DNA of 63,821 nt, the filler included, from Basidioascus undulatus (taxonomy: Eukaryota), in the NCBI GenBank assembly GCA_000826855.1. It is 4 parts of 4 records of this genome, joined end to end, with 100 filler letters (N's around TTAATTAATTAA, not from the genome) between each part and the next. Parts side by side here need not be neighbours in the genome. Positions count along the whole stretch, not along the records: positions 15,107 to 30,112 come from JTLS01000672.1; 3 more parts are not named here. One strand, 5' to 3'. The position numbers were made by a program, and so were the translations under genes. The first letter of the stretch is position 1. The number at the start of each line of letters is the position of its first letter. Of the stretch, positions 291-62,125 are shown piece after piece. The notes beneath the pieces were generated by a model. The model had not been told where the DNA came from and searched no databases. It saw nothing but the letters and a program-made list of their open reading frames with translations.

Positions 291-625
291 GTGCCTCTGC
301 GCACTCCATCCTTCTTGTGAAGTCACGGTGCCTCTGCGCACTCGTTTGGTTTCTGCGCCGAGTGCCTCTGCGCACGTCCTTAAATTTTGCCATTGATTCT
401 TAGCACTCTATTTTTTTTCCTTTGGGGTGCCTCTGCGCATTCCATTTTTCTCCTTCCGAGTGCCTCCGTGCACTCGTTGCTCGATTCGTTTCCTATTCAA
501 GCTGCCTCAGCGCACAGCGTTAACCTTCTCACTATTGTGCTGCCCTCGTGCACCACCGTTCACACTTCGCGAGCCTCTCGGGGCTCTTGACCCCCATCAC
601 TTTAACGAACCTTGCCCTCGGTGCA
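291..625. repeat. Array of short degenerate direct repeats (GTGCCTCTGCGCA) separated by unique spacers
   Basis: Exact 13-mer at 291, 328, 362, 427; degenerate copies at 460, 502, 540, 612 (possibly 393). Start-to-start spacing 33-42 nt or about double that. Confidence 0.75.
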
Positions 626-6696: not shown

Positions 6697-8184
6697 GAGC
6701 CGGGGGGGGGGGGGGGCGCGGGAGGGACATTGGGTGAATGCGAGAGGAGTGGGGAGGCGAGGAGTGCGACAGGGTGCGAGGGACTAAGCCCGCTCAAGAT
6801 ATAAGCTGTGCGGAAGCCCCAGCGAATTTGACAAGGTACGATTGGGGAAGATTGGTACAAGTGGCCAGCTGATGGATGCGAGCGAGCGATAAGTAGCTGC
6901 GTTCGTAGACACGAGGGGGAGCGGGCGGGCGTGGATTCGCGAAGAATGAGCTGAGGAGCGACGGCAAACACGATGGAAAGGTGGAGAGTGTGGATGGAGA
7001 TTGTGGTTTGCTATGCCATAAGACGGCACGCTGCGCTGTCGCCAGGCCGCTCGAACGTGATTGCGCGACGCGGCGATGTCGTTCCGGCATGAGGATCGGG
7101 CCGCGACGTCAGGTCCCACGTGTCGGGGACTGGTGCGGGACCCGATGAGGGCGGAGAATAGTTCCAAGCTAGAAGCCAAGATATTCAAGTTGCAACTATG
7201 GTCAGCGTCGATTAGTGGACGAAGATTGAAGGCGGTGCGGGTGAGGACAAAGGCGGTAAGGCGGGCGGTGAGGCAAGAGGACAGTTGAACTTGGTTGAAC
7301 TCGGTGGAACAATGCCCGCCAGCCCCGAATCACAACTTTTACTACAAGTCGCTTCGCTCGCCTCGTCCAACGCCTGCGGAACATTTGCATGACATATGAA
7401 GCAAGCTGATAACTGGACAAAACCCAAGCTGGACGTGCAATTCGGACAGGCAGAGGACGTTCAAAGATGTGGAGACGCAATAAAATTCGACGACGATGCG
7501 CACATAGCGGCCCTCGCCCTCCCACCTGCCCAAAAGCTTCACCCTCCAAAGTACAACCGACGCCGCCTAAATGAAAAGCGGAAAAAGCAAAGGGGGGGAT
7601 GTGGCCCTTAGATGGACCGCCGGCGCCCACCGAATCGGGCGCCGAGGTGAGTAGCAGGCTCCATGAACTTCGTCGACTCTTGCCTCGCACAAATAGGGTC
7701 ACGCGTAGGAGTACCGAACGCGACCCAGAGTGAAAGGAGGCTGGTGCTGTCTCGCGAGAGGGAGGAAACAAAAGAGAGAGGAGAGGGTGCAGACCGGATG
7801 GGGGAGGGCAACGGCGGGATGCATGGGTCGGTATGTACACGGCTGGAAGGGGAAGAAGACAATATTAGGGGATTGTTGTGATGGTATTGTGAGAGAGAAT
7901 GAGAGAGAATGAGAGAGAAGAGTGTGATGGGAGAGAGGAAGAGAGGGCAAGGGGAAGAGAGAAGACGCGAGTTCCCCCCTGGACCGAGACCGGCCCTGAA
8001 GGTCTCAGGCCCCAGGCGCGAACGCCGTCGTGCTTTTCTCGTCACCACCCACACTACCTTCTCACTACCACCTCTTATAACTCCCATCTCTACCCATCTG
8101 GTACACCCTCCCATATCCCCAGCAGCGCATTCCGCGGATTCCGGCCTTTTACCGACACTCTCCTCACCCCGTTCCCCAGCCAGA

Positions 8185-8519
8185 ATGGACCAAGCGAAGC
8201 TCGCCCGCCTCCAGGCCGCGTCCCGCACCGGTCCGTCTCCGCCTGGCGCCCCCGACGACGAGCTTCGAGGACCGGAGCGCTGATGTGGGACTGGGACTGG
8301 TGCTTGGGGTGTGGTGTGGTGTTGGGTGTGGGGAATGGGAAACAGGTGGGAAGGGCACGCCCCGGCGTAAGGTCGTCAAGAAGCCCAAGTCGTCGGGCGT
8401 GGACGACCAGAAGCTCCAGGGCGCGCTCAAGAAGCTCAACGTCCAGCCCATCCAGGGCGTTGAGGAGGTCAACATGTTCAAGGAGGACGGTAACGTCCTC
8501 CACTTCACCGCCCCCAAGG
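8185..8519 (+). CDS. EGD1: NAC beta subunit (BTF3), first two exons only
   Basis: Exon 8185-8230 [16 protein letters not shown]; intron 8231-8345; exon 8346-8519 [12 protein letters not shown]...[39 protein letters not shown]; donor GTGAGT at 8520. C-terminal half not seen in the window. Confidence 0.93.
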
Positions 8520-8685
8520 GTGAGTCAATCGCAGGAGGTGGGGGGTGGGGAGAAGGTGGAGGCCGGCAGGCGGGCGATGAAGGATCGGGCTTTTGGATGG
8601 GTGAAGGATGGGCGGGCTTGGGTGGGGAGATTGCCGTGCGGTGCAGGCATCGGCGTCATCATCCAGGCGTCTTCATTCCCCCGCC

Positions 8686-11600
8686 ATGTCCGCCGTCGTC
8701 CGCACCAAGTCCATCAAGGAGCTGTCCGCGCACCCGGGCGCGGCAGCCCGCACAGTCAAGAGCCTCTCCCTCGCCGACGCGGCCGCCGCGGCGGAGTTCG
8801 CGGAGAAAAAGCGCGTGTGGGTCCCCGATGAGGCGGAGGGCTACGTTAGCGGGTGGGTCGTCAGGGAGGACTGCGAGGATGGGAAGTGGGAGGTTCGGAC
8901 GGGGGAGCAGGTGAGTCGGTGTTCTCCTCTCTTTCTGCATTCTGTCTGGAGGGTTCTGGGTCGCATGGGATGGGGAGCTGTGTATTGAATGGATGTGATG
9001 CTGCACGCTCCAGCCTTCCGAGCAGCCACTGACTATGGACCACCGCCTCCGCACGCACAGACCCGCTTCGTCAACCCCGACGACCTCTCCAAGCAGAACC
9101 CGCCGCGCTTCGACAGCGTGCAAGACATCGCCGAGCTCACGTTCCTCAACGAGGCCTCGGTCGTGCACAACCTCCGCACTCGCTACGGCGCGAATCTCAT
9201 CTACGTGCGGCCGCTCCCTCCCTCCATTTCCGCATCCTCCTCGCGTTCCTTCGAGTCTTCCTGGTCGTTGCGGAGAGGCTAATGATGTGTGTTTGGGGGG
9301 TCCAGACCTACTCGGGTCTCTTCCTCGTCGCCGTCAACCCGTACCGCGACCTCCCCATCTACACCGACGCCATGGTCGCCGCGTACCGGAACCGGCGGCG
9401 GGAAGACAATGCGCCGCACATCTTTGCGGTTGCGGACCGCGCGTGGAACGACATGATTGCCGAGCGCGAGAACCAGAGCGTGCTCATCACGTCCGTCTCC
9501 CTACTTCCCCCCTCCCTCCTCCCCTCACCCCGCGTTTGACTTGGTGACTGGTGGGGTAGCGGCGAGTCCGGCGCAGGCAAGACGGAGAACACGAAGAAGG
9601 TGATCCAGTACCTCGCGGCGATCGCGTCCGAGTCGCACTCGCCGTCATATGACCCGACATCCATCGCGCACACGCGCTCGCCGTCCCGCCCGACCTCCTC
9701 CTTCCGGCGCCAGCCCTCGTCCTTCGCCCCTCCCTTGCCCTTCCCCGCATCCGCCTCCTCCACCGGCGCGCTCGGCTCCCTCGAGGCGCAGATCCTCCAG
9801 GCGAACCCAATCCTCGAGGCGTTCGGAAACGCCCAGACCGTAAGGAACAACAACTCGTCCCGCTTCGGCAAGTTCGTGCGCATCGAGTTCGCCAGCGGGG
9901 GCGCGATCGCGGGCGCGCATATCGACTGGTACTTGCTTGAGAAGAGCAGGGTCACGAACCGCGCGAAGGACGAGAGGAGCTTTCATGTGTTTTATCAGAT
10001 GCTCGCGGCGGCGCCGGAGGACATGCGGGGTGAGTTTGAGGCGGAGTTGAGGGAACTGGGAGAAGGGAGAGAGACTGATTTGGGGTTGGGCTTGGTGGGC
10101 GGGAAGGCGCGCTCTTACTCGAGGGCGGGATTGATGACTACGAGTACCTCAAGCACACGCGGCGCGAGGTGGACGGGATCAACGACCGGGACGAGTGGGC
10201 GCACCTCAAGGTCCGTCTTCCCTGTCTTCCCCTGCTCTCCCTTCTCCTTCCCTCCCACCTTTCCCATCCCCCACCCCGCACATCCGGCTTACCCTGCCCC
10301 CCACTCAATAGACCGCACTCGACGTAGTCGGCTTCACGCCCGATGAGCAGCTCGACCTCTTCCGGATCGTCGCCTCGATCCTGCACATCGGGAATATCAC
10401 GCTCCACTCCTCTCGCTCGACGGACCAAGCGTCCCTCTCCTCCCCGCACGCGCTCCAGCGCGTCGCGCAGGTCCTCGGCCTCCCCCCAAAGGACTTCACG
10501 ACCGCCCTCCTCTCCCCACGCGTGAAGGCGGGGCGCGAGTGGGTCTCCCAGGCGCGTACTGCGCGGCAGGTCGCGGACGAGATGGCCGCGCTCGCGCGCA
10601 CACTGTACGAGAAGAGCTTTGGCGCGCTCGTCGAGCGCATCAATCGCGCGCTGGGGGAGATGGAGGGCCGCAGGGCGGGAGCGACGTTCATTGGGGTCTT
10701 GGATATTGCGGGATTCGAGATCTTCCAGAGGAATAGCTTTGAGCAGCTTTGTATCAACTATACGAACGAGAGGCTGCAGCAGTTCTTTGTGAGTTTTGGG
10801 AGTTTTTTTTGCTTTTGGGGTGGGCGCGTAGCTGACGTGAAGGGGCACAGAACCACCACATGTTCGGTTCGTCTGATCTCGCGCTCGAGGAGGAGGTGGT
10901 GGTATAGGGGTTGGAGGCTGATGTAGGTGGTCGGTCGGTGAACAGTCCTCGAGCAGGAGGAGTATGCGCGAGAGGGCATCCAGTGGGACTTTGTCAACTT
11001 CGGTCTCGAGTGCGTTCAGTCTGCCCTTTCTCGCTGTTGAAAGAGAGCTAACAGCGCGCGGTGTTTGCGCTACAGCCTCCAGCCGACGATCAACCTCATC
11101 GAGAGCACGGACCCGATCGGCATCCTCTCGTGCCTCGACGAGGAGTGCATCATGCCCAAGGCGACAGACGTCACCTTCACCGAGAAGCTGCACGGGCTCT
11201 GGGCGGGCGGGGCGACGAAGGACATGAAGGCGTCGCGGATGGCGCACGACCAGCCGCCGAGCGAGGACGCGCTGGCGGCCGCGGGCAAGTACGCCCCCGC
11301 CAAGTACGCGCCCGACGGGTTCGTCATCCAGCACTACGCGGGCAAGGTCGAGTACCGCACGGAGGGCTGGCTCGAGAAGAACAAGGACCCTCTCAACGAC
11401 CACCTTACGCGCACGCTCGCCGCGTCGTCGGACAAGTACGTCGCGAGCCTGTTCTCGGACTATGCGGACGAGGACGCGGGCGCGGGCGCGAAGCGGCGCG
11501 CGGTGAAGAAGGGCGCGTTTAGGACCGTCGGTCAGCGGCACAAGGAGCAGCTGACGAGCCTGATGGCGCAGCTCGGGTCGACGCAGCCGCACTTTGTGCG

Positions 11601-14600
11601 CTGCATCGTCCCCAACAGTCTCAAGAAGCCGGGCAAGATCGACACGCCGCTCGTGCTCGACCAGCTACGCTGCAACGGCGTGCTCGAGGGCATCCGCATC
11701 GCGCGCCTCGGCTACCCGAACCGCCTCCCCTTCGCCGAGTTCCGGAACAGATACGAGGTCCTCACGCCCGGCGTCATCCCGCGCGGGTACATGGACGCCC
11801 GCAAGGCGTGCCAGCGCATGCTCGACGCGCTCGCGCTCGATGGTGCCAGCTTCAAGATCGGCACGAGCAAGATCTTCTTCAAGGCGGGCGTGCTCGCAGA
11901 GATGGAGGAGCGAAGGGACCAGCACCTCTTCGACATCTTCTCCCAGGTCCAGGCCGCCGCAAGGCGCTACGTCGCGCGCAGGCAGATCAAGAAGATCCTT
12001 AACCGCGCGACTGCGGCGCGCACGATCCAGCGCAATGCTCGCATCTATATCGAGCTCCGCGAGTGGCCATGGTGGAACCTCTACACCCGCGTTCGGCCCC
12101 TCCTCGCGGCGACGCGCTCGGACCAGGAGCTCAAGCAGAAGCAGGTGCGTGGTGGAGTTCGAGCTGCTGCTGGAAAGGGAAGAGCTGATCGTGGTCGTGG
12201 GGTGCGTATGGGTAGGCCCACATCAAGTCACTCGAGGACGAGCTGTCGACGGTCGCGCAGGACCTGGACGCGGCGTCGAGCGAGAACAACAAGCTGCTCC
12301 GGCAGATCGAGGCCGTGGAGAAGGACCTCGAGTCGGAGCGGCACCTGAGCCTGAGCAACCAGGAGCTGCTCGCGCGCTCGAAGGCGCAGGAGGCCGAGCT
12401 CCTCGAGGAGCGCGCCGCGCTCCAGGCCGAGATCGACACGCTCGAGTCGCAGCTCGAGCGCTCGCTCGCGAGCATGAAGAGCACCGAGGCAAAGTACGCC
12501 GAGCTCAAGGACGCGTTCGACGTCGCTTCCGAGCACCTCGTCAGGCTTGAGGCGGCGGAGAAGGAGTGGAAGGAGCGCGAGATCGTCCTCGCTGATACCG
12601 CCGGCGTCAAGCAGGACGAGTGGGACGCGATTGTCCACGAGAAGGAGGCGCTCGGCGCGAACGTCGAGGAGCTCAAGGCTGCCGTGAGGAGCAAGGAGGA
12701 GGACCTCGAGCGTTCGACTAAGCGCTTGCAGGCGACGACGGCGGAGCTCGAGGCGAGGCTGGACGCTGCTGTCAAGGAGGGGTGAGTGCGGCGCTTTCAA
12801 GATGGTGGGGTTTTGGTCGTACTTGAGATGCTGACGCGCGCCACTGGTTTTCGCCTTGCAGCGAGACGCACAAGGCCAAGGTCGAGTCCGCCACCCGCGA
12901 GGCGCGCCAGCACAAGGACCGCGTCTCGGAGCTAGCGCGCACTGCGGCCGACTTCCAGGCGCTCATCGCGAAGCGCGAGGACGACGTCGCGAGCGTGGCG
13001 GGCCAGCTCAAGTCGGCCAAGTCGGAGCGGGACAAGCTCGCGCGCGAGGGCGCGGACCTGCACGCGCGGATCTCGACGCTCTCGAGCCAGCTCGAGGCGC
13101 AGAAGCTCGACCGCGACCAGATCGCGGAGGTCAAGGCGAAGCGGGAGGCGGAGCTCGACGAGCTCCGCCAGCTCCTCGACGAGAAGGTCTCGGAGGAGAC
13201 GCGCCAGAAGGAGGTCGAGCAGAGCAAGGCCGCCGAGCTCGCCGACTTGCGTGCACAGCTCGATCAGCTCCGCGCGCAGCACATCGACGACGCCCGCGTC
13301 GCCAGCGAGCACGCCGCTAAGCTCCAGGCAGACCTCGAGGAGGAGCGCCGCAAGCACGGATCCCTCTCGCGCTCGCACGCGTCGCTGTCGACTCGCGCGG
13401 AGACCGAGTCGGCCAGGCTCAAGGAGGCAGAGTCGAAGGCTGACAAAATCGCGCAGGAGAAGCGCGCTGTCAACGCCGAGCTCCAGAACATCCGCGCCAG
13501 GCACCTCGAGTCCGACGCTGCGCTGACGGAAGCTCGGGCGAGCAAGGATGTGCGTTGGCGCCGTGACCATTCCGTATCTTGACTGCCGATGCTGATCATT
13601 GGTTCTGTACGGCACACAGGCACTCAGCAACCAGCTTGCCGAGGCGACACGCAAGCACCACGACTTGGAGGATGCGATCCTGCAGCTCGAGCGCGAGCGC
13701 GACTCGTACATGCGCCAGCGCGACCAGCTGCGCGCGCAGGCGGACAGCATCGTCGCCGAGCTCAAGGCGGACGAGCAGAAGCGCGCGGCGCGCCACGCCG
13801 CGGACGAGCAGGCCCGCCTCGGCGAGATCAACCAGCTCAAGGAGCACGTCGCCGCGCAGGACAAGGCGCTCGCCAAGATGCGCGCGGACCTTGCGGGCAA
13901 GGACGACGAGATTCGCTTCATCAAGGCGCGCGGGTCCAAGACGGTCGTTGAGCACATCCACGTGCGTTGGCATCACCTTTCTCGTGGTACAGGAATCTGA
14001 CAGCTCTCGGGATGTTCCTTAGGTCCTCGAGGAGGCGAAGCGCGTTACGGACCGCCAGCTCGCCGAGGCGCGCTCCGAAGTCTCGCGGATGGCGACGTAC
14101 ATCAAGTCGCTCGAGAAGGGCAGGTCGCGCCTGACCGGCGAGCAGGAGGACCTCATGCGCGAGATGGAGCGTCGCCGGATCGCCGCGGAGAAGGACGCGA
14201 AGGCGCACGCGCAGAAGACGTCTACAGTCGTCGCTGAGGCGCGCAAGGAGCGTCTTGCCCGCGAGACTGCCGAGGCGACAGCACGCCGTCTCGAGAAGGA
14301 GGTCACCGACACGCGCGACCGCCTCGCGGACGCGACGAAGCAGATCTCCAACATCCAGCGGTCAAAGAGCAACCTCGAAGCGGAGCTCGCGTCGTTCGCG
14401 AACGAGAGCAAGTCGCAGGCGTCGCTCAAGCAGATCCACCAGGACTCGGACAGCCGCTTGAAGCAGATGGAGGCTCGCCTACAGGAGTCCGAAGCCGCAC
14501 GGGCCTCGCTCGAGCGCGCGGCGCGCAACTACCAAAAGCAGACGTCGGACGTGCAGCGTCTCCTCGCCGATAAGGCGCCTATCGACGACACGCTCCGCGC

Positions 14601-15006
14601 CCAAATCCTCCGCGACCTCGCCGACACGTCCGCGGCGATACAGCGCGAAATGACTGCGCGCGAAGACGCGCTTCGCTCGCACAAGCCCGAGAAGCCGCTC
14701 CACGTCTTCGGCAACATGGCGCCCTCGAAGCGCAACCGCACCATCTCCGCGCCCAACGGCAACGACGTTCACGGCGCCGGGCTAAGGGCGCGCGACGATC
14801 GCTCGGATAACCAGTCGCAGCTCCTTCGCGGCCAGCTCGACATCCTCGAGCTCCAGGTCGCCGCGTCTGACCGCGTCCGCCAGCACCTCGAGGACCAGGT
14901 GCGCGAGATGACGCACGACCTCGAGGCGAGCGACGGGACGGCGCAGTCGCTCGAGGCGACGCGCGCGAGGCTCGCCAAGCAGAACGCCCGCCTCGCCGAG
15001 CTCCTC
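8686..15006 (+). CDS. myo2: Class II myosin heavy chain (S. pombe myo2 / S. cerevisiae MYO1 type), cut at the contig end
   Basis: N-terminal KKRVWVPD, P-loop [62 protein letters not shown] region, [14 protein letters not shown] and a long coiled-coil tail. Includes a 16-nt micro-exon at 10851-10866 (NHHMFV). Confidence 0.96.
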
Positions 15007-15106
15007 NNNNNNNNNNNNNNNNNNNNNNNNNNNNNNNNNNNNNNNNNNNNTTAATTAATTAANNNNNNNNNNNNNNNNNNNNNNNNNNNNNNNNNNNNNN
15101 NNNNNN
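15007..15106. other. Artificial contig linker
   Basis: N44-TTAATTAATTAA-N44, with stops in all six frames. Confidence 0.98.
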
Positions 15107-16343
15107 GGGCGGGCGCGGCCGCGGCCGGGACTGCTGGGTCGACCAGCTCGGGACCGGCAACGGCGACGCAGGCCAGCTCGAACGCGAGTCTTAGCCCATT
15201 CCCACCGGCTGATGCTGGGCCGTACGCCCCGCCTATGCGCTCCACGAGCGAGGAGCGCGTGTGTGCTGCGGCGCCGGCATCGAACGCGAAGGGGAAGGAG
15301 CCGGAAAAGCGGTTGGGGCTGAGGACACCGAGCGCGATCTACAGCGAGGTGACGGAGCGACATCGTACGTTGGACGTGCAGTTTCGCATGAAATGCCCCT
15401 GTTATCCTCACTCCGTCTGTCCCTGCGCAGGTTACGAGGAGGGCTACCACTTCCTCATAAAATACTTGACGAATCTGTGCGTCCGCTTTCTCTTGGTTTC
15501 TGTTAACCCAGCCCTGATTCATCCGCCATGCCGCGCCTCCAGCTCCTCTCGCTTCGATAAGCCTTCCGTACTCCGGATCGTCCGCGCGCTCGCCGTCTTC
15601 CGCCCCTCCCTCATCGCGCTCCAGATGCCATTAACGGAGGAAGACGAGGTCTTCGTCGAAAAGTGCTTCCAGCGCTCGCTCATCGAGTTCGAGCGCCTCA
15701 TCAGCTTCAGCGGGACGCCGACTGCGTGAGTTCTGGCTCTGTTCGGGCTGAATGCTGAGAGGCGAGCGCGTGCTGACTGACGGATGGGGTGAATGCGTTT
15801 TCTTGGGAGGACGGACAGTGTGTGGCGACGGACGGGCGAAATCGTGCTGGTTGGCGTAGAGTTCGCCTTGCTGTCGGAGTACACCAAGGAGGACTTGCTG
15901 GGCAAGAAGACGTTCATCTACGAGGTTCGTACGGCTCTCATGCCATCTGGTTGACCGATGCTTACCTGCCTTCTACCCAACGCAGCTGTTCGAGACGACA
16001 TCCGCCGTGGAATAGTGCGTTCTTCTGCCAACGGTCATGGCCGAGCTGTGCGAGGCGATGGCTGACCCAACGACCTGCAACGCAGCTGGGAAAAGTTCGC
16101 CACGCACGCGTTTGAGTCGACCGCGCAGTCGGTGCACACCACGTGTGTGCTCCTTACCGCCTCGGGCCGACCAGTACCGTGCACATTCTGCTTCACGATC
16201 AAACGAGAGTGCGTACCTCTCCCCCGTCCCGCTTGCGCTTTCCTCGCTTCTCGCCCGTGCTGACAGTTCATCTCTGTGCGCCTGGCAGCGTGTTTGACCT
16301 GCCCAGTCACGTAATCGGGAGCTGGCTGCCGATTCTCACCTGA
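15107..16343 (+). CDS. ERT1: Ert1/AcuK gluconeogenesis transcription factor, C-terminal PAS region (5' part missing)
   Basis: YEEGYHFLIKYL, FRPSLIALQMPLTEEDEVFVEKCFQRSL, SGTPTA-VWRRTGEI, WEKFATHAF, CTFCFTIKR and DLPSHVIGSWLPILT*. Confidence 0.88.
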
Positions 16344-16804
16344 GATGGTGCGCGAGTTGGGGTTGGGAGTGGGGTGATGGGTAGCGTAGGGTGTGGGATG
16401 AGTAGGGATACCGAGCGGGACGCTGGTTGGCCCCCATGACTTTCTGAGTACTGAGGAGGACGTTGTTGTACGATGCGCTCGATCGCGGACTATTCTTGTT
16501 GTGACACACATTGCTTGCTCCCGGGAGATTGGCGTTTGCGTGTGGCCGCGCTTCCATGGTCCGGGGGAGTGCAGAATGTTTCTTAGTTTTCCGCGAGTGA
16601 TACTTCTGGGCGGCGGACACTACTATAAGGCTAAGCACCTCCACAGTGCACAAATTCTCGTGTTACAGTCATGGCCCTTTGGGAAATCAGAGATGGGTCC
16701 CCACCGTGGACTGCGTTACGGTAACTGTGTAAAGTAATGAATGGTCTTCTTTGAGCTTGCAGACACTTACTTTAGGACTGAGTGTAATAAAATGCTCAAG
16801 CAAC

Positions 16805-16810
16805 AAAAAA
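16805..16810 (-). terminator. RNA polymerase III terminator (T6)
   Basis: TTTTTT begins 1 nt after tRNA position 37; the same arrangement occurs in copy 2. Confidence 0.8.
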
Positions 16811-16811
16811 G

Positions 16812-16884
16812 TCGTAGTCAGATACTCTACCATTGAGCCAGCCGGCCGTGACCGACGCAGGGATCGAACCTGCAACCCCCTGAT
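16812..16884 (-). tRNA. Circularly permuted tRNA-Arg(ACG), copy 1 (3' half 16884-16849, 1-nt spacer, 5' half 16847-16812)
   Basis: Minus strand reads ATCAGG GGGTT GCAGG TTCGATC CCTGC GTCGGTC A / C / GGCCGGC TG GCTC AATGGTA GAGT A TCTGA CT ACG A. Swapping the halves gives a complete 72-nt cloverleaf. Confidence 0.93.
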
Positions 16885-16892
16885 CTCGACTT

Positions 16893-16903
16893 CCACTACC
16901 TTA
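16893..16903 (-). promoter_or_regulatory. A-box-like element in the leader of permuted tRNA copy 1
   Basis: TAAGGTAGTGG resembles the A-box consensus TRGCNNARYGG; same position as TAAGCAAGCGG in copy 2. Confidence 0.55.
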
Positions 16904-18042
16904 GGCGAAGCGGTGTCTCTTATTTTGCCTTATGCACTCATGTTCGTTGAATATCTAGCAGCCCAGAAGATGGCAGGATTCAGATATACTGGTCTTCAGG
17001 CAGAAAATATTGACAGTCAAGAGATTTCAGCACTGTGATCAGGGCCAGGGCTCGTTATAGAATGCAGCCAGCGCCAGACTGCAGTGTCACCACACGCAAG
17101 AGGCCATATGCTGTCTGGTCAGCGCTGATCAACGCTTGCAGGAGTTACCTCCACCCTTTTATTGGGAAATAAAAGTTAACTTCCATCCTCCACGTTGGTT
17201 TATTTCTGTGGAAACAGGGCCCTCGTGCACCTTGCAATGAATATCCGTTAGCATCAAGCTTCCTGCTGAGGCTTAAGACCAGAGCTATGTGACACCCTCA
17301 CCGACTCCCAAATCCTGAGCATGACTTCCAGAAAACTCGCAGTGGAGGGCGTGCGGTCACACAGACATGAACGGCGCGATAGCGGGTCGGAGGGGCAAGG
17401 TAAAGGCGGAGGCCGTAGCCCTCGTGGACGCACGGAGGGTTTTGAAGACAGGGAAGGTCGAGGTGCTCGGGACGAATTGGAGAGCGGATTTGGCTCAGAA
17501 GATTAGGAGGAAAGGGAATTTTCCATCAGGTTGCTTTCGGCGAGGCGAAAGTCCAAGGAGGGCTGGGCGCGGTCTTCCACTCGAACAAACCATACGGTAG
17601 CATGTAAGGCTTCCGCTGCATGAGATTCACCTGCTCTAGAGAATGTGAGAGTTATTTTTAAAGTGGAAGTGGAAGACCAGATTTCTCTCTACTCTCCAAC
17701 TGCGTTTCTAAGTCTCTAAAGGCAAGGTCGGAACCGCAGGCGCCGCGGCGTGCTGTTTTCGCTCGAAATTGTGCTACAGCCCGGATATTCCTCCAGTCAG
17801 TTTAAAATTGAAGTTTGGAGAGAGGTCTTCTACCAGTGTCCTCCCTCTGATACGAGCTTGCAAGCGCTCAGTATGAGCACTTGCTGTAGAGCAAGGCTAG
17901 TGGCCTTCTCCATTCCACTACACGGCTAGTAGCGGTAGAGGGACTTCTGTTCAATGACTCAGGCGAGTCGAGCCCAAGTACATCTTGGGATCACTTTTGT
18001 GCTGCGAGTCGAGAAAAATAACAAACGTGTGAATTCAATATT

Positions 18043-19096
18043 TTAATCGGTGGCATTATACAGCTTCATGACAAAGGGTGACCAACCCAAACAAGACGCC
18101 CAACTGTAGAGCTCATTCTCCATCAAGCCTTGTCCATCCCCAATGTCTCCTCCAACGTCATGCCGCGCATGTCCCACAACGTGCCCTCCAGTAACCCATC
18201 CCGCACCGCTGCACCCACCGCCGCCAAAGCCCCAGAAGACCTGCCCGGGAGCCCTGCAATTCGACGCACTGAGACCCGGACTTTTGCCTTTGCAGGCCTC
18301 GTAAATAGAGCTCAAAAGGTGGCAAATATCGAGATCGTCTGGGTGTATGATGAGAACGTGCTCGAGAACGGGCATGGCAAGAAGAAAGACCGGAACAGAA
18401 TGGCCGTGTTGGACGAAGCCCGGTCTGTCGCAAAACTAGCTGAGTCAAAGAGGTGAAGTTGGGGAGGCGAAGTGTCCCGCCCCAGAAGAAATTACCAACC
18501 ACGACGCAAAGCCGACAAAGGGTCCCTGCGCCTGGCTGCAAGAGGATTTCGATGAGCATTTTCAAGGCTATCCAGTGCCTGTTCAGTGACACTCGGTCTC
18601 AGTCTGATGACTGCCAGTTCCTGAAGATTGAGGCGTCATATGGTCCAACTCAGCGGACTACGGCGCTTGTACCATTTCGACATCTTGCTCAAACAGGTCG
18701 ACAAAGTCAAGAGAGATGACAAGCCGGTACAGATGTGGCTGCATGACTTTGAAAGCGCTTTTGGCCTTCTCTATGGCCCCGGCGGGGGCCTCTCTTGTGA
18801 GTGACAGCATCAGGTCGTCTGGGTCGCATAGAGCAAGTGATTCGATGAGGTGCAGGGACCATTCCGAAGATGGGTCCGTGCTGGTAAGCGACAGGACTGA
18901 CGGCCTGCAGAGAGAGCGGTGGAGGTGCGGAAGAGCGACGTCCCTCACCCCGCGCGAGACGCCCCGTGCGAGACAAGCGTGAGTGTGAGAAGTGTGTCCA
19001 TGACATCTCAGGGTTCACCCGTAGGCCAGTGGGTGCGAGAGCGGCGAGCTGCTCAGTGACGTGCGCGACGATGTCGAGCGGGATCGAGATGGGCAT
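18043..19096 (-). pseudogene. F-box/LRR-like protein pseudogene between the two tRNA copies
   Basis: MPISIPLDIVAHVTEQL, TLLTLTLVS / RGVRDVALPHLHRSL, LNLQELAV, FTSLTQLVL and MPVLEHV lie in different frames. A 14-bp duplication at 18948-18974 shifts the frame, and there is an in-frame TAG at 18658. Confidence 0.6.
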
Positions 19097-19351
19097 GATG
19101 TGCAAAAGTGTGCTGGCGATGGTTAGAGTACGAAGTGAGAGTTGAGCGCAAGGAGCGGATTTGCAGGAACTTGATATCGTGAACAGGATGATTTTGGATG
19201 ATGGTGGTTGAAGGGCAAGCTGCACCCGATGACCTGGCAGCTGTCTGTATCATGCTGGATGTGCGTTCACTTCCCTAGACACTCCGCTATAGAACGCAAA
19301 ACAAACTTGTGCCCGTGATAGTCTTGTAAAGATGGAAAAATCATGAAATGC

Positions 19352-19357
19352 AAAAAA
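19352..19357 (-). terminator. RNA polymerase III terminator (T6)
   Basis: TTTTTT begins 1 nt after tRNA position 37. Confidence 0.8.
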
Positions 19358-19358
19358 G

Positions 19359-19431
19359 TCGTAGTCAGATACTCTACCATTGAGCCAGCCGGCCATGACC
19401 GACGCAGGGATCGAACCTGCAACCCCCTGAT
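19359..19431 (-). tRNA. Circularly permuted tRNA-Arg(ACG), copy 2 (3' half 19431-19396, 1-nt spacer, 5' half 19394-19359)
   Basis: All 72 mature positions are identical to copy 1; it differs only at the spacer base and in the leader. Confidence 0.93.
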
Positions 19432-19439
19432 TTCGACTA

Positions 19440-19450
19440 CCGCTTGCTTA
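19440..19450 (-). promoter_or_regulatory. A-box-like element in the leader of permuted tRNA copy 2
   Basis: TAAGCAAGCGG, same spacing to the B-box as in copy 1. Confidence 0.55.
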
Positions 19451-19819
19451 AGCAGGGCTGTGACAACCTGTGTCTTTTCATTCTTATGTCCATTCTCTCA
19501 CTGTCACTTGCTTTAATCATGCCAATCGTCGAGCCATTTGGCCTTCTACTGCAAAATTTCAATAGGTGGAATTATCATCATATTTGCTGAAATTCCATCC
19601 AGGGTTCGGCAAAGCAAACAAGGCGCGTTTTGAGACTCTGCGAGCGGCCAAACATGGACGGAAGCGGCGGGTCCCAATGTTCACTTTTGCTTAGTGTAGT
19701 TTTCCCACGCTGATCTGCTTCGCTGCGGCCCCTTTCCCTCTTGTTTCCTCGCTCTCGTTTCTGGTCTCATCGCCGCTGCTAAGACAGCAGTCTCTTAAAC
19801 CCAACCCCTTCTCCTGATT

Positions 19820-20960
19820 ACGTAAGGAAGTGGCCAAATCTGGGGGGTCAGGGAACCCAAAGTCCATTTACAGCGCTGCAGGGGACCTCAGACGAGTGGA
19901 ATGGGGTTGTCAATGCTTGCAGAAGTGTCAAATCCGTTGGTGAAGTGGCAAATGCTCTAAATCGGCGAATCCCGGAACGGTTAGCCCTGTTCATGCCCAC
20001 ATGACCTGCAAAGAAAGCCTGGCTGGAAGACCCCCTTCCCCGCTGAAGTTCCACTTTTATAACTCATGAACGCAGGAAGCAATCCACATTCTGCTGGCTA
20101 CCATTTCTTTGTGATCTTCATAGAAGAGGTCTCAGCCGTTATTTGCCTGTTCACAAGGACAAGGTGTAGCAATGAAAGTTGGGCAGGAGCGGGGGTCGGG
20201 TCTAATAGACCGCTGTTAGTTTGCGTTACGACACCAGTAGTCGTGACTTGCCCCTCCTCACCTCCCCCATCGTCGTTCTCGATAACAGTCAACTCGCTGA
20301 CAATTGCTGCTCATCGCTTCTTGCTCACGATTGACGTGTTGCCTAACACCGATGCCGACTTCAGGCCGTGGTTCAAAGCTCAGCGTTTCGCAGCGGGGCT
20401 CTTGCCGGGCGATATCACCCAAACTCGTTCCAGCTGCCGGTGGAATTCGATCAAGCCGTACCGGCAACGCTCGTCACCACTTCATCCTCCTCGAAATACG
20501 CGGATCAGTCGCCTCAACACCAAAATCTTGCTGTCGTCCTGCGCATCGGTGCCGCTTCGCTCGAGGTCTGGCCCATCTTCTCCTTCCACGACTCGAGCGA
20601 CGCCATTGCCCAGACGGATACGGTCCTCAGCAATCGCCTCATTCCTCTCCTATACATTGCGGATACGCCCAACCAGCCTCTTCAGCTCTCCTGCACCTTG
20701 CCACGCGGGTTCGGTGAGGAGCCGCTCCAAATGGGAGGATCTTGGCGGAGAACTGACTGTATGGTATGAGGCGCAGTTCCGTCTCTTCAAACAATCCTTC
20801 CATCTCGCGCGAGTACGACCGCATCGCCGCCTACCGTGACCGCTTGTCTGCCTTGATCGCCGCCGGCGGGACGGAAGCCACTGCTTCCGAGGACAAGGCC
20901 AACGTGAGTCCGGAGAACGCTGCCAGGGAGAACGGTTCTGATCGACAATCCGACGAGTCA
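19820..20960 (+). CDS. Hypothetical multi-exon gene, possibly degraded
   Basis: Protein-like segments in several frames with plausible splice signals; no family recognised and boundaries approximate. Confidence 0.25.
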
Positions 20961-21432: not shown

Positions 21433-24400
21433 TCATGCGACCCACTTGCGAGCGGAGACGAAGAGCGACTGCCACGGGCCGGCGCCCTTCCAGGCCTTAA
21501 CCTGCGCGGGGTCGACCCAGGCGTTGGACTCGGCGAGGGTGCTGCGCTCGGGGCTGCCAGAAAGACAGGTCAACAGTGCACGACTAGGACGTTAAACGGG
21601 AAGCAGGGACGCACTGAGGCATGACCATGAGGAAGCGGCCGTTCGCGGAGGAGACACCGGCTGTTCGGATGAAGAGGGCGTGTCAGATCGGCTATAGGCT
21701 ACGGAGGCGGGAGACGACAAACCAATGGCGTCGGGAGAGCCGTTGATGTTGGCGGGGTACTTGACGGCCGGCGCGCCCTTCGAGTCGATATACCGCAGCG
21801 CAACCAGGCCCTGCTTCTTCAGCGCCTCGCGGTCCACGTCCGAGCGGAACGTCGCGCGGCCCTCGCCGTGGGCCTGAGCAGAAAGAAAGGACGTAGTCAG
21901 CAGCCCGCCCAACTCAGACGGGAAGGACAGACACAAAGCAACATACGATCGCAACGGGGAGCCTCGAACCCGCCATGTCCTTGAAGAAGACCGAGTTGGT
22001 GTCCTTAGGAATCTCGACCTGCGCCGTGCGGCCCTCGAAGCGCGAGCTCCGGTTCGGCTTCCACACGGGCCAGTGCTCCGCGCCGGGGATGATCTCGCGG
22101 AGGTTGCCGAACAGCTGGCAGCCGTTGCAAACGCCGAGGGCGAACGTGTCCTCACGCTCGCCGAAGAAGCGCTCGAACTCTGCGCGCGCGGTCGGGTTGA
22201 GAAGGATCGACTTGGCCCAGCCGTTGCCTGCGCCGAGGACGTCGCCGTACGAGAAGCCGCCGCACGCGGCGAGGCCGCGGAAGGCGTCGAGCGAGACCGC
22301 GCCGGAGAGGATGTCGGACATGTGGACGTCGACGGCCTCGAAGCCGGCGGCGTGGAAGGACCACGCCATCTCGACGTGCCCGTTCACGCCCTGCTCGCGG
22401 AGGATGGCGACCTTGGGGCGGGCGGTGAGGGCCTGCGGGAGGCGCTCGACCGCCTGCGCAGGGTCGAACGTGAGTTCGTACGACAGCCCCCCGTCCGCGT
22501 CGTCCGCGATCGCGTCGTATTCCTCCTGCGCGCACAACGGGTCGTCGCGCAGGCTCTGCATCCGGTACGAGGTCTCCGCCCACGCTTGCTGCAGCGCCGC
22601 GCGCGTCGCAGTAAAGATGGGGCGCGAGCTCTGCGCGACGGTGATCGTCTGGTCCGTGCGATCCGTGCTGACCGTGCCGATCGCGTGGATGGCGGTTGTG
22701 GGAAACCCGGCCTTGGCGAACACCGCGGCAAGGGTGGGGAGGTCGGAGCGGCGGACCTGGACGACGGCGCCGAGCTCCTCGTTGAAGAGCGCCGCGATGG
22801 GGTCCGCACCGAGCGAGTCAACCATGAGCTCCACGCCCGCGCGCCCAGCGAACGCCATCTCGGTCACAGTCGTGAAGAGACCACCGTCGGAGCGGTCGTG
22901 GTACGCGAGCACGAGGTCGGGGTGCTCGGCCCGCACGAGCTGCGTGGCGGCGAAGAAGGCCTTGAGCACCGCAGCATCCTCGACGTCAGGCGCCTCGCTG
23001 CCGATTTGCTTGAAGACCTGGGCGAGCGCAGAGCCGCCAAGGCGCTGCTTGCCATTGGCGAGGTCGAGGAAGACGAGTGCAGTGTCGCCGACGTCGGTCC
23101 TGGGAATCAACGGCAACACGTGTAAGCTCAAGAATCCAGATATTAACGCATTGCAACATTGCGAATGACTCACCGAAGCTGGGGCGTCCAGGACTGGGAG
23201 ACGTCGAGCACAGGCGCAAAGGCAGTGACGATGAGGGACAGCGGCGCAGTGACCTGCTTGTCCTCGCCCGCGTCCTTCCAGCGCATGCTCATGGACATCG
23301 AGTCCTTGCCGACGGGGATGCCGACGCCGAGCTTGGGGCAGAGATCGATGCCGATGGCCTGCACGGCCTCGTACAGGCGCGCGCCCTCACCCTCGTGCGA
23401 CGCGGCCGACATCCAGTTCGCGCTCAGCTTCGTTCGCGAGAGGTCCTCGATCCGCGCCGCGGCGAGGTTAGTCAGCGACTCGGCGACGGCCATCCGCGCG
23501 GAGGCGGGCGCGGAGAGCAGCGCCAGCGGAGTCCGCTCGCCCATCGCCATCGCTTCGCCCGCGACGGCATCGAAGCCGTAGGAGGTGCGGGTGACGGCGA
23601 CCTACGAGAAAGCCGGGGTCAGTTGAAGGAAGAAAATGGGGAGAAGAAGGGGAAGAACGCACGTCAGCGACAGGCACTTGCCACGGGCCGACCATCTGCT
23701 CGCGCGAGACGAGACCGGTGATGCTGCGGTCGCCGATGGTGATGAGGAAGGACTTGGAGCCGACGCTGGGGAGGTGCATGACGCGGTCGACCGCGGTGGC
23801 GAAGGTGTCCTCGAGACAAGGTGAGTTGGGGAGGTACGAGGCAAGGGACGAGTCGAAGGGGACGCGGGGCGGGTTGGCGGTCAGCGCGTCGCGGTGCATC
23901 TTGGGCGGCTTGCCGAACAGCGTGGACATGGGAAGGTCGATGGGCGTGTTGCCGAGCAGGCGGTCCGTCACAACAAGGCGCTCCTCGGCGGTCGCGACGC
24001 CGACGATGGCATACGGACAGCGCTCGCGCTTAGCGAGGGCCTCGAAGGCCGCGAGGTTCTCTGGGCCGACGGCGAGGACGTAGCGCTCCTGGGACTCGTT
24101 GCACCAGATCTCCATGGGGCTCATGGATTTGTCGTCGACGAGAACGTCGCGGATCTCGAAGCGCGCGCCGAGGTCCGAGTCGTGCACGAGCTCGGGGAGC
24201 GCGTTCGAGAGCCCGCCCGCGCCGACGTCGTGCACGCTCTGGATCGGGTTGCGCTCGCTGAGGGACACGCACGCGTCCAGCACCTGCTGGCACCGTCGCT
24301 GCATCTCGGGGTTCTCGCGCTGGACCGACGCAAAGTCGAGCTCGGCCGAGGACGCGCCCGAGGCCATGGACGAAGCGGCACCGCCGCCGAGACCGATGAG

Positions 24401-25783
24401 CATGCCGGGACCACCGAGGACGATGAGGTGCGCCTCGGGCGTGATCTTGGACTTGTGCGCGAACGCGGGGCGCACGTTCCCCATCCCGCCCGCGATCATG
24501 ATCGGCTTGTGGTACCCGCGCACCTCGGTCTTGCCGTCCTTCGAGAGCGGCACGGTCTCGGCGAAGGTGCGGAAGTAGCCCGCGAGCGCGGGGCGGCCGA
24601 ACTCGTTGTTGAACGCGCTTGCGCCGAGCGGGCCCTCGAGCATGATGTCGAGCGCGGAGGCGATGTGGCTCGGGCGCCCGAAGTCGGTCTCCCACGGCTG
24701 GACATGCCCGGGGATGAGCAGGTTCGAGACGGTGAAGCCCGCAAGGCCGGCCTTCGGCTTCGACCCGCGCCCGACGGCGCCCTCGTCGCGGATCTCGCCG
24801 CCGGAGCCCGTGGCCGCGCCGGGGTAGGGCGAGACGGCCGTGGGGTGGTTGTGCGTCTCGACCTTGACAAGGAGCGGCATGTCCTCCTCCGTCGCCGCGT
24901 ACGCCGGCGCCTTGCCCGGCTCCTGCACGACCGCGGCGAAGCGCGGGGCGCGCGAGCCCTCGAGCACGGCGGCGTTGTCCGAGTACGCCGAGATGGTGTG
25001 CTTGGAGCCGATCGTCTTCTCCGTGTTGCGGATCATCTGGAACAGGCTGAGGTCGCGCGGCTGCCCGTCGACCGTCCACGACGCGTTGAAGATCTTGTGC
25101 CGGCAGTGCTCCGAGTTGACCTGCGCGAACATGAAGAGCTCGACGTCCGTCGGGTCGCGCTTGAGCGCGGACGTCGGGTGCGCGACGAACGCCTGCACGA
25201 GGTACTCGATCTCGTCCGGCGCGAGCGCGAGCCCGAGGCGCGTGTTGGCTTCCACGAGGGCCGCACGCGCCTCGGCGGCCTCGCCGGGGAGCGCGACGGT
25301 GCGGAGGGGCGCAGGCGCGGCGGTGTGGAAGAGGTCGGCCTCGGCAGGCGGCGCGGGGAGGACGAGTTGCGTCATCCGGTCGTGGAGGAGGTTGATGAAC
25401 CCGCTAAGGTCGTTGAGGGTGAGCGTGCGCTGGTCGGACGTCCCGAGGACGAGCGCGATGCCGCGCTCGATGCGGTTGACCTTGCCGTCGAGGCGGCACA
25501 TGCGCGCGATATCAGTCGCCTTGCTCGACCAGGGCGAGATCGTGCCCGCGCGGGGGACGACGTAGAAGGTGTTGGAGGAGAGGACGAGCTCGGACGGCGA
25601 GTCGTAGACGAGGAGCGAGTCCAGGATCGCTTTGTCCTCGGCAGAGAGATCGGCGAGCGTCGAGACGAAGTGCACGAAGCGGGCGTCGAGCGAGGTGAGC
25701 GTGGGGATGAACGCCTGCGCCGAGCGGAGGAGGGACGCCCGCTTGGCGGGGGGGAGCGCGGCGGGACCAGCGAGGAGCAGCAT
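21433..25783 (-). CDS. ADE6: Phosphoribosylformylglycinamidine synthase (PurL)
   Basis: [110 protein letters not shown] at 21433-21435. Confidence 0.98.
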
Positions 25784-58530: not shown

Positions 58531-60158
58531 TCAAGTAAAGAACCCTCTCGTCAACATAAAAACGATCTGTCTAAAGAACCCTCTCGTCAACATAAAAACA
58601 ATCTGTCCCCGTCCCAGTCCACCCACATATTACATCAGCGTTCTACGCCTTTCTTCGCCCCTGCCCTCTCGCGTGGACTCACGTTCGCCCCAAACCCAAT
58701 CATGATAGCCATGCTCATGCGCATGCTGAACACGACGGACGGGACGCTCGTCGCTTCCGCCTCGCCGCGCCCGCTATCAGATACGATCCGTCGTGCTTCA
58801 CGGAGGAAGAAGAGGGGGATGACTTTGGGAGAGGACGTTAGTGAGCTGGTGTAGAGAGGAGGGAAGGGGAACGCGGAAGGAGAGGAGCGAGAGGGGGGAA
58901 GAAAGACAGACTGGGAAAGAAGAACCCAATTGTAAGGCCTTGCAGGAGTGTGAGGTGAGCGTCGGCCGGAGCTGTAGGTTGGGTTCGGCGAAGTCAACAC
59001 GCAGGAAGAAAGGATGCAAGGTGAGAGACGAGTAACAGACCAGCGTCAGTAGCGAGCGCGTTGTCCTGCCCAATATCGTCTATCCAAGCCTCCTCCAGCG
59101 CCCTCGCATGTTCGTCTTCTACTCTCCCGAACCACAGTGCACGTTGTTCAGCATCTTCCATCCCTACCCTCCTCCTCATTGCAGCACGCCAGCACGCCAA
59201 AACGCACCATCCAAATCCTCAATCACCCCACCGCCGCCCGGCGGTCTCCCCCCATCCTCATCCGCGGCCCCCGCACGCGCATGGAACTGCGCTCGGAGGG
59301 ACTCCACTTCGGAGGGGGACAGCCCGGCCGCGAGGAGGCGGTCGAAGCCTCTAGCCGGCGTGATCTGAGCTGTCTGTTCCAGCACCACGTCTCCCGTCAA
59401 CTCTCCCCTCACCCTTGCACATCTCGCGCCGGGTAAACAAAAGCTCATGGGAACGCACCTGTTCCGCCCCCTCCTCGCCGCCCTCATCCAGCACCTCCTC
59501 CCCCACGGCACAATGCAGCCACACCGTCTCCTCCTTCCGCTGCTCCTCCGCCTCCCCCACCGCCTCACCCCCCAGGCCCACAAAGTTCGCCGCGGCGCGC
59601 TTCGAGCGCGCCTCGAGGTTCGCGAGCCAGGGAAGGAGGAGCGTCCCGTCTGAGATGAGCCTGCCGAGGTGGATGAGGCGAAGACGGCGGTTGGACAGGG
59701 TGGGGCGTTTGGAGCGGATCTGTGGGGGTGCGCATCCCACATTCAGAGGGGGTTATGAGGTGAGGGAAGGAAGAACGCACAATGTCCTTGACTACCCGCA
59801 CGCTATCCCGCTCCCCAACAAGGATGGTCAAGTCCTCCGCGGCGTCCCCAAAGCGCACGACGACCTCGCGCGCTCCGCCCATGTCAATCCTGACCTCCCC
59901 TCCTCCGCTCCCGTCCCGATTTGGCGTGCGCTCCAGCTCAGGACCGAGCTCGGGTACGGCGCGCTGCTTCCCTTTGGCCTTCTCGCTGCGCTTGTTCACA
60001 AAGCGCTCGAGCGCGGTCGGCTGGCCGGAGGGCGACGTGGAGAGGAGCGCATCGCGCTCGCTGGGTGGCGATTCGGGAGACAGGGACTGGGAGGGATTGC
60101 TTGATGGCTCGCTGAGGTATGATGGACCTGCTTCGGAGGTGAATGAGGAGTCGTCCAT
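58531..60158 (-). CDS. DSC3: DSC E3 ubiquitin ligase complex subunit 3 (ubiquitin-like domain plus TM)
   Basis: VVRFGD, RRLRLIHLGRLI, WLHCAVGE, RGFDRLLAAGLSPSEVESLRAQFH, RALEEAWID, LLQGLTIGFFFP-VIPLFF and FSMRMSMAIMIGFGAN. Confidence 0.9.
58536..58607. repeat. 36-bp tandem duplication
   Basis: TAAAGAACCCTCTCGTCAACATAAAAACRATCTGTC starts at 58536 and at 58572. Confidence 0.92.
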
Positions 60159-60628
60159 GGGCGGTGAGATGTCGTTGTTCGGAAGACGCGCTGGCTGGAA
60201 GCAAGGGGGAACGTCCTTCGGCCCGACGCGGCGGCCACGCGTGATTCCCGCGGGGAATAGCCGCTATCCGCAACATCATCTTCAACAGGAATGCAATGAT
60301 ACATCCCCAGCAATTCCACAACGAACTCCCACAAGCAGCTTTCAGGACGTAGATGAGTTTCAGAGCTGCAGCTGGCCCAACATCCTTCCCTACCCGGCCA
60401 TCTGTCCACTCCCCTTTACTTGCACGCTTACTAGAGCGCTTCGCCTCACACAAACACGTGCCTGCCAACCGAGGGAGCCCCACCTCACCCGAGCGTGTAT
60501 AGAGAAGTAAACGTGAAAGTACATGGCGAGTGTGTATCACAAATGAAATGCAGTCGTCGCCGCCCCGGCGCAGTCCCACCCCGCAATCCGTCCCACACCA
60601 CACATCCGCAAGAGACATCAAGACCAGC

Positions 60629-61757
60629 CTAGATCTTGACCTCGCGGAGGCCGTCACGCCAGAAGGCTGTAGATTGTTAGGAGAGGCGTTAGAGGGGCGT
60701 GTGGGAAGCAGGCGGATGGGGGAGGACGCACTGATGAAGGGGGTGACACCGTCCTCGCGGTAGTTGAGGAGGGCGATCATCCCGTCGGGGTCCATGGACT
60801 CGCCCTGTTTGGGTGCGAGAGCGAGTGTAAGTGGCACAGCGCGGAGTGTGGATTTAGGAAAAGGAACGCACGGTGAAGAACCTGCGTGGGCGAAGGGACA
60901 CAATAGGCGGCGCATGGTTCGAGTGGAGTCGCGGAGAGGCAAGAGAAGGGAGAGCGAAGAATTAGCGGTGTTGGAAAGGACGAGCGGAAGCAGGACGAGT
61001 GAGATGGGACGGGTGAAGTGGGAGGCACGCTAAGTCAGCGCTCTGGCAGCCCGAACCTGCTCAAAACCGACGCACTCGTAGTCCTTGAAGTTGGCGATGA
61101 TCTTCTTGGCGAAGTCCTGTGCCTCCTTCTCGAATTCGGGGACACGGTCCGGGTTCGTCTCCTTCAGCTTCTCCTTGACGGCCTTCATGTAACCCTGTGA
61201 ATCGCAATACCGGCCGCAAGATGAGTTGTCGCATACGGAGACGGCAGGGGATGAGAGTGTGACGCACCTTGAGGTAGACGAGGTAGGACTTCTTGTCGAA
61301 GGAGGTCGACTGGAGGCGGAAAGAGTGGACGACGTTGTTGACGGTCTGGACAGACTCGTCGAGGTCCTCAGCGGCCTCCTCGGCAGAGGCGTTGGCGCCA
61401 ATGTCGACGTCGCCCTCCTTGATGGTGACCTGTTGAATGATGTGTCCACCGCTGCGTGAGCCTGCGCGCTCGGAGGAGGAAGCGGGGTATAAGGAGGCCG
61501 CACCATGGAGCAGTCAACCTCGTAGGCGACCTTGCCGACCTCCTTGACGGGGAAGGCGTCCGAGAACACTGTCCAGTAGAACACCCCATTGTAAGCCCGC
61601 GCGCCGGCCAGAGAAGGAGAAGCAAACACGCACTCTCGTTGCCAGCTGCCAGCGTGGAATCGAGCCCACGTCTCCCAATCAGCCCGCTGTTCCCCGCCCT
61701 GCCGCGGTCCACATGTGCACAACACTACGCACTCAGAACGTCCTCGAAGACCTTCAT
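60629..61757 (-). CDS. TMA19: Translationally controlled tumour protein (TCTP)
   Basis: [75 protein letters not shown] and FWRDGLREVKI*. Micro-exons at 61634-61645 and 60872-60881. Confidence 0.96.
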
Positions 61758-62125
61758 TTTGATATAAAGAAATGCGGGGAGTGAGGGGAGAACGTGGAGA
61801 GTGGCGGCGAGGAGGAAGGGAGGGCAGAGGCGAGTGGTCTGTAACAGGCAAAGAAGACAGTGCAGACTGACAAGCGCGAGTTTTCCTTGCTCGCTTCCGC
61901 GGTCTAGGCGCATTACGTAACAATCTGACGCGGTGTAAGATCACGTGCGCGTCAGTCTCGAATTTCTCGCAAGGGAGAAGGCTGTCGTCGAACGTGCTCA
62001 CCGTCCATCTCGTCGCGCTCGCCGCCGGGAACGGCATCCTCGCTACCGTCCTTGTCGTCCTGCTCACAGCATTGACAGCGCCCCTGCATACCCACCCCGC
62101 CGCAGTTTCCCTCTACTCGTCGCCC

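Follow-up and report, generated by a model that had tools for sequence, protein, structure and literature searches.

How can a stretch of DNA hold all the parts of a tRNA with the rear half in front? This question is raised by two 88-nt blocks in the window, i.e., the whole stretch of 63,821 nucleotides (filler included) that was analysed. In the alignment, copy 1 covers positions 16804-16891 and copy 2 positions 19351-19438 of the plus strand, and both are read from the minus strand. In minus-strand order, each block consists of a 7-nt leader, the 3' half of a tRNA (A38-A73), one base, the 5' half (G1-A37), a C, a run of six T residues (T6) and a G. In both copies the two halves thus share one strand, with the 3' half placed first, which is the layout of a permuted tRNA gene. 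The parts are as follows, all on the minus strand:

19439..19500, minus: upstream flank of copy 2, a possible promoter region, sharing short collinear motifs (borderline) with the copy 1 flank 16892-16950
19432..19438, minus: leader of copy 2, 7 nt, AGTCGAA, the first five bases complementary to C35-G36-A37 and the first two trailer bases; position 19432 variable
19396..19431, minus: tRNA 3' half of copy 2, A38 to discriminator A73, 36 nt, holding the T arm and the B box
19395..19395, minus: intervening base of copy 2, T on the minus strand, between A73 and G1; variable site
19359..19394, minus: tRNA 5' half of copy 2, G1-A37, 36 nt, holding the D arm, the A box and the anticodon ACG
19352..19358, minus: trailer of copy 2, C at 19358 and T6 at 19352-19357, a Pol III terminator-like signal
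16885..16891, minus: leader of copy 1, 7 nt, AGTCGAG; last base 16885 variable
16849..16884, minus: tRNA 3' half of copy 1, A38-A73, same sequence as in copy 2
16848..16848, minus: intervening base of copy 1, C on the minus strand, between A73 and G1
16812..16847, minus: tRNA 5' half of copy 1, G1-A37, same sequence as in copy 2
16805..16811, minus: trailer of copy 1, C at 16811 and T6 at 16805-16810, matching that of copy 2

An earlier note on this DNA had claimed that the two copies, 2547 bp apart on the same strand, differ at two sites only, and reading and aligning both loci bears this out. Exactly two bases mismatch over the 88 nt of the minus-strand alignment: the single base between A73 and G1 (plus-strand 19395 vs. 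16848; on the minus strand T in copy 2 vs. C in copy 1) and the base directly 5' of A38 (19432 vs. 16885; A in copy 2 vs. G in copy 1). The terminator, which had likewise been said to be kept, follows A37 as C, T6 and G at both loci. One 22-nt stretch from the core is present at two places in the window, vs. 0 expected occurrences in 100 shuffles.

On the window as it stands, no tRNA is reported by ARAGORN, and a search of the whole window against Rfam at gathering thresholds returned nothing; an ordinary tRNA-Arg gene was likewise not found by ARAGORN within the window. The picture changes when the halves are reordered in silico with the 5' half before the 3' half. Both copies then give one identical 72-nt sequence, which ARAGORN assigns to tRNA-Arg(acg) with a canonical cloverleaf: the acceptor stem has 7 bp, the D, anticodon and T arms are all present, and the anticodon loop measures 7 nt. 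When doubled 220-nt chunks were tiled over the whole window and introns were allowed, ARAGORN called tRNAs only at copies 1 and 2. Neither copy encodes CCA. As read from the sequence, the junction of the termini falls within the anticodon loop at 37/38, and in copy 2 a join at 36/37 would lead to the same product. The permuted layout of both loci is solid. Judged from sequence, the two copies and the family to which they belong are probably functional tRNA-Arg(ACG) genes in circularly permuted form, joined at 37/38, and their function as a source of tRNA is likely. As ARAGORN and Rfam gave no tRNA here, standard tRNA finders would miss such permuted genes.

With introns allowed, ARAGORN does make one call on the plain window, c[16848,19394], in which the 5' half of copy 2 is joined to the 3' half of copy 1, located 2474 nt downstream on the minus strand, across a 2474-nt intron. 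A single split gene with such a giant intron is very improbable. Copy 2 has its T6 run directly behind the 5' half, the flanks of the other genomic copies differ, so that these offer no such pairing, and the remaining two halves would be left unexplained.

The junction was examined by predicted folds of the two copies. Unconstrained MFE folds and folds with constrained cloverleaf arms were compared, and a leader-trailer helix appears in both. In this favoured fold, a 5-bp helix extends the anticodon stem, with AGUCG of the leader on one side and, opposite to it, C35-G36-A37 together with the first two bases of the trailer. The gain amounts to about 6.4 kcal/mol (-27.8 and -27.6 vs. -21.3, cloverleaf-constrained). 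The last two leader bases and A38 face C32-U33-A34 in a 3x3 internal loop, so that the 3' cut site falls among 3 unpaired nucleotides adjoining the anticodon stem, with the variable leader base in the same loop. A strict archaeal-type bulge-helix-bulge would pair 32, 34 and 35 and include one U-C mismatch; it comes out as energetically unfavourable (-17.2 and -13.4 vs. -21.3 without it). The eukaryotic tRNA splicing endonuclease sets its 5' cut by the distance from the tRNA body and requires a bulged 3' site. The favoured fold would be compatible with these rules. Besides the unfavourable strict register, the location of the 5' cut site inside the helix and the one-base spacer, which is too short to close the full 7-bp acceptor stem, count against the reading as permuted genes.

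Paired termini and a closed acceptor end are also features of RNAs which stay permuted, and the blocks could accordingly encode a tRNA-like non-coding RNA, a tRNA mimic of the YrlA type. YrlA has been described as resembling circularly permuted tRNAs (10.1101/312249), and YrlA (RF02553) provides the sole Rfam matches of the two copies, at 40.5 and 36 bits (E 8e-7 and 1.7e-5). It shares with them the order of T arm, closed acceptor-like stem and D arm as well as the pairing of the two ends, and this likeness in arm order and paired ends explains why it is the only Rfam family to match. Nevertheless, such an RNA is improbable here. Both scores are far below the gathering score of 69, so that the threshold of the family is not reached even by the better match (40.5 of 69 bits). 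YrlA is bacterial and associated with Ro60, whereas the host in the present case is eukaryotic. Moreover, YrlA has no anticodon arm that could be rebuilt, while joining the ends at 37/38 restores a complete anticodon stem and a 7-nt loop with ACG in the present sequences, and the acceptor loop measures only 2 nt here.

For the reading as permuted genes, a maturation pathway can be proposed which is modelled on the one shown for algal permuted genes, as described in PMC3978253. By analogy with the algal genes, Pol III would start upstream and read through the unit as far as the T6 run. The leader would then pair with C35-G36-A37 and the first trailer bases, leaving the 3' cut site single-stranded. 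The tRNA splicing endonuclease would cut after A37 and before A38, and tRNA ligase would join A37 to A38, resulting in a circle with a one-base spacer. Subsequently, RNase P would cut 5' of G1, the extra base after A73 would be trimmed or, in the case of C, might be kept as C74, and CCA would be added; if this holds true, the C variant of the spacer may double as C74. Deamination of A34 to inosine would finally allow the tRNA to read CGU, CGC and CGA. Since this pathway discards leader and spacer bases, both variable sites would be thrown away. The claim that the two differences fall in positions removed during maturation thus agrees with the model.

As regards signals for transcription, TTTT is absent within the unit, and C and T6 come right after A37 at both copies, as expected for a Pol III terminator. 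The B box in the T arm lies 5' of the A box in the D arm, which is the reverse of a normal tRNA gene and the wrong order for TFIIIC. With the boxes in this order, the Pol III start is probably fixed by an upstream element. Upstream of the 7-nt leader, the flanks of the two copies share two short collinear motif blocks at borderline significance (p about 0.05), and downstream of the T run they are unrelated (p 0.29-0.72). This is in line with the claim that the flanks are unrelated apart from short motifs, and the unrelated flanks exclude a fresh segmental duplication, as had also been argued. A clear TATA-like element shared between the two upstream flanks was not found. An A-rich stretch is located about 33-42 nt before A38 in copy 1 and is weaker in copy 2. 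A scan for sigma-70 promoters and terminators yielded nothing above shuffles, the bacterial model being irrelevant to a eukaryotic host. It was also considered whether the upstream flank could derive from a former 5' half, a tandem duplication having left an A-box-like promoter behind; this was rejected, as either flank, when aligned to the 5' half, performed no better than shuffles (p about 0.75). Likewise, the alignment of the downstream flank to the 3' half was not significant. The flanks of some other copies look A-box-like, as judged by eye only.

The number of these other copies was assessed from contigs of two DNA sequencing runs of different studies, X1 and X2, which hold 0.98 and 0.97, respectively, of the sampled words of positions 16000-20000. 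In X1, two short contigs carry the acceptor junction, one at a depth of 298.3 (16826-16878, no other letter) and one at 175.4 (16823-16878, one other letter), while the flanking contigs have depths of 13.5-22.1. This contig depth suggests about 26 junction-bearing copies in the genome, and the roughly 16:10 split of the X1 depth is taken to reflect the C and T spacer variants. In X2, the one-letter variant occurs at 472.7 vs. about 50, a ratio as in X1. Contigs fitting both loci make up 43 of 66 in X1 and 42 of 62 in X2. Many different loose ends occur at the block borders (16802, 16892, 19348-19354 and 19450), and the copies must therefore have many different flanks. The multi-copy status is solid, and the genome-wide count far exceeds the two copies for which a multi-copy gene had been claimed. 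On the basis of sequence, we consider it likely that nuclear tRNA-Arg(ACG) genes in circularly permuted form make up a dispersed family, with two copies in the window and roughly 26 in the genome.

At the core, the contigs of X1 and X2 alike are broken, and none of them spans a whole copy together with both flanks. An assembly artefact, i.e., a collapsed or chimeric repeat, could leave such a pattern; so does a repeat of 26 copies, which produces breaks of this kind. From both sides of both copies, contigs of X1 and X2 enter the core from its own flanks with 0 other letters, both runs being possible sources of the assembly. Hence, an artefact hardly comes into consideration, and the view of the earlier note that the loci are not mis-assembled is supported by two runs reaching both loci from their own flanks, with the reservation that these runs may have served for the assembly. 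The back-joined A37-A38 form was not seen among the run contigs, which cannot show its absence.

Purifying selection or gene conversion had been proposed to explain the pattern of differences. The part of this claim that stands is that both differences fall in discarded positions, for which the chance is 0.031, given 16 non-mature positions out of 88; this gives modest support to constraint or conversion acting on the two copies. Recent dispersal of a short unit cannot be separated from it on two copies. Beyond the window, the mapping of variable sites is mixed. Both window differences lie in discarded positions, but an X2 contig covering 16837-16879 carries two other letters at a depth of 47.3, which is the single-copy level. 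Probably at least one genomic copy therefore has a change in a mature position, so that not every copy would be clean there.

Recent dispersal might equally concern units without function. The family could be a young dispersed repeat derived from a tRNA, made up of retroposed or copied permuted units, pseudogenes or SINE-like elements which are near-identical through recent spread. The copy number of about 26 and the unrelated flanks would suit such a repeat, the borders of the unit match a plausible transcript from the leader to the T run, and, with just two differences between the window copies, the selection test (p 0.031) is a weak one. Still, this explanation is unlikely, for the unit has none of the marks of a tRNA-derived SINE (an A followed by a B box, a body, a tail and target-site duplications). 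No target-site duplications were found around the copies, the longest word common to the flanks being 5 nt, which is below the shuffle mean; tail and body are missing beyond the 88 nt, which end in T6; and the boxes come in the order B then A. Moreover, the reordered cloverleaf is perfect, the spacer varies, yet the junction region is otherwise represented by just two high-depth contigs, and the copy number matches the dominant arginine codons.

As to the host, the window carries genes of eukaryotic type which are interrupted by introns; they encode head and tail parts of a myosin, an FGAR amidotransferase, TCTP and a zinc-finger protein of the C2H2 class. An exon of the FGAR amidotransferase (771 aa) shows 62-69% identity to proteins of Basidiomycota, with Wallemia being best at 67-69% and many relatives from Agaricomycetes and Microbotryomycetes at 62-67%; among the 240 matches listed, all named rows are fungi. 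The window thus looks like that of a basidiomycete-like fungus without a close sequenced relative in the searched database, and it is this apparently fungal host that makes the case unusual. In four Pfam-supported exons (1841 codons), CGT, CGC and CGA account for 124 of 166 arginine codons. These are the codons served by tRNA-Arg(ICG), for which a high gene copy number is consequently to be expected. Tentatively, it may even be supposed that every gene for this major arginine tRNA, which covers about three quarters of the arginine codons, is permuted in this lineage and that no canonical copy is left; translation would then depend on a pathway of cutting, circularising and reopening. On this reading, permuted genes would for the first time be known from outside algae and archaea and as a family of many copies, and their spacer would be the shortest possible.

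According to the 2014 review PMC3978253, most eukaryotes have no permuted tRNA genes, although the 37/38 layout ought to be workable in principle. Table 1 of this review comprises 34 such genes, which belong to C. merolae, Ostreococcus, Micromonas, the B. natans nucleomorph and Thermofilum pendens, and Arg(ACG) is absent from these 34 entries. The type II genes of algae tabulated there go back to Soma 2007 and Maruyama 2010. As described in this source, the type II genes of Cyanidioschyzon merolae, Ostreococcus, Micromonas and the Bigelowiella natans nucleomorph resemble the present copies in many respects. In both, the two halves occupy one strand, with the 3' half upstream; the termini meet within the anticodon loop, where a canonical intron would sit; the gene does not encode CCA; the 5' half is followed by a stretch of T; and leader and trailer are complementary around the junction. 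In contrast to these algal genes, the present ones occur in a basidiomycete-like fungus and their strict bulge-helix-bulge fold is not favoured. They further differ from the tabulated cases in the isoacceptor, Arg(ACG), in the number of copies (about 26 as opposed to single genes or a pair) and in the spacer, which measures 1 base vs. 5-74 bp for the eukaryotic intervening sequences of Table 1. There, an intervening sequence of 1 bp is given only for the tRNA-Tyr(GTA) of T. pendens (Chan et al. 2011, via PMC3978253), which shares this single base with the present copies but is archaeal, has its junction at 59/60 in the T loop, encodes CCA and contains an intron. A 2025 preprint on the green alga Auxenochlorella (PMC12633428) reports permuted tRNA genes and thus extends the layout beyond prasinophytes and red algae, the host still being a green alga. 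In a search of openly accessible full-text literature, no title or abstract reporting permuted tRNA genes in fungi was found. Similarly, metagenome contigs and contigs of prokaryote genomes, collections which hold few fungi, gave 0 exact-pattern matches.

Up to now, permuted tRNA genes have passed for an oddity of one archaeon and a handful of small algal genomes. If the reading as working permuted genes is correct, the present family would extend a mechanism already described to another kingdom and to a new isoacceptor, its spacer being minimal and its copy number without precedent. It would further imply that the Sen endonuclease, the Trl1-type ligase, RNase P and the CCA enzyme of an opisthokont can take a major tRNA through a circular intermediate, and that permuted genes can multiply and yet stay uniform. 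Since standard finders miss permuted genes, the tRNA sets of fungal genomes may be under-annotated. Besides, a possibly culturable, non-photosynthetic system would become available for the Pol III start with misordered boxes and for the opening of a one-base acceptor loop.

A weak hint of expression comes from a third, cDNA-like run, X3, which is not recorded as RNA. An 80-nt GT..AG interval (16209-16288), kept by both DNA runs, is skipped in one X3 contig, and the depth of X3 is zero between copy 1 and copy 2. Core contigs of X3 have depths of 33-61, and one of them crosses the 5' half, the spacer and the acceptor strand of the 3' half. The permuted core may accordingly be expressed, the contigs being devoid of starts, ends or strand. 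The interval 16209-16288 itself has the appearance of an intron removed by splicing from a gene on the plus strand, immediately to the left of copy 1, in a region where the surrounding ORFs have no Pfam match.

As regards the surroundings of the copies, the 4-kb bin 16000-20000 has the lowest G+C of the window (0.533 vs. 0.55-0.66 elsewhere), and its ORFs are without Pfam match; it is probably a gene-poor intergenic stretch. A Pfam search of 19 ORFs around the copies returned nothing except GATase_5 in the last ORF (21592-22383) and one sub-threshold DUF match. This ORF is part of the neighbouring gene for FGAR amidotransferase, an enzyme of purine synthesis, which extends over 21592-25783 (minus strand). 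This gene is divided among at least three ORFs (23468-25783, 21914-22858 and 21592-22383) and must therefore be interrupted by introns or frame changes. Farther away, two adjacent minus-strand ORFs at 59938-62037 each contain a different part of the TCTP domain (profile positions 89-131 and 133-156) and probably represent one TCTP gene with an intron, within unusually long ORFs. On the plus strand at 7899-15054, ORFs for a myosin head and for a myosin tail or coiled coil (11152-12348 and 14089-15054) suggest a gene for a class II-like myosin heavy chain, which fits an opisthokont rather than an alga. Near the start of the window (291-440, minus strand), the 14-nt word GTGCGCAGAGGCAC occurs four times within 150 nt, three times exactly and once with 1 mismatch, vs. 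0.04 expected occurrences. The repeats are spaced about 35-65 nt apart in a purine-rich stretch and possibly form a short tandem-like regulatory or satellite repeat.
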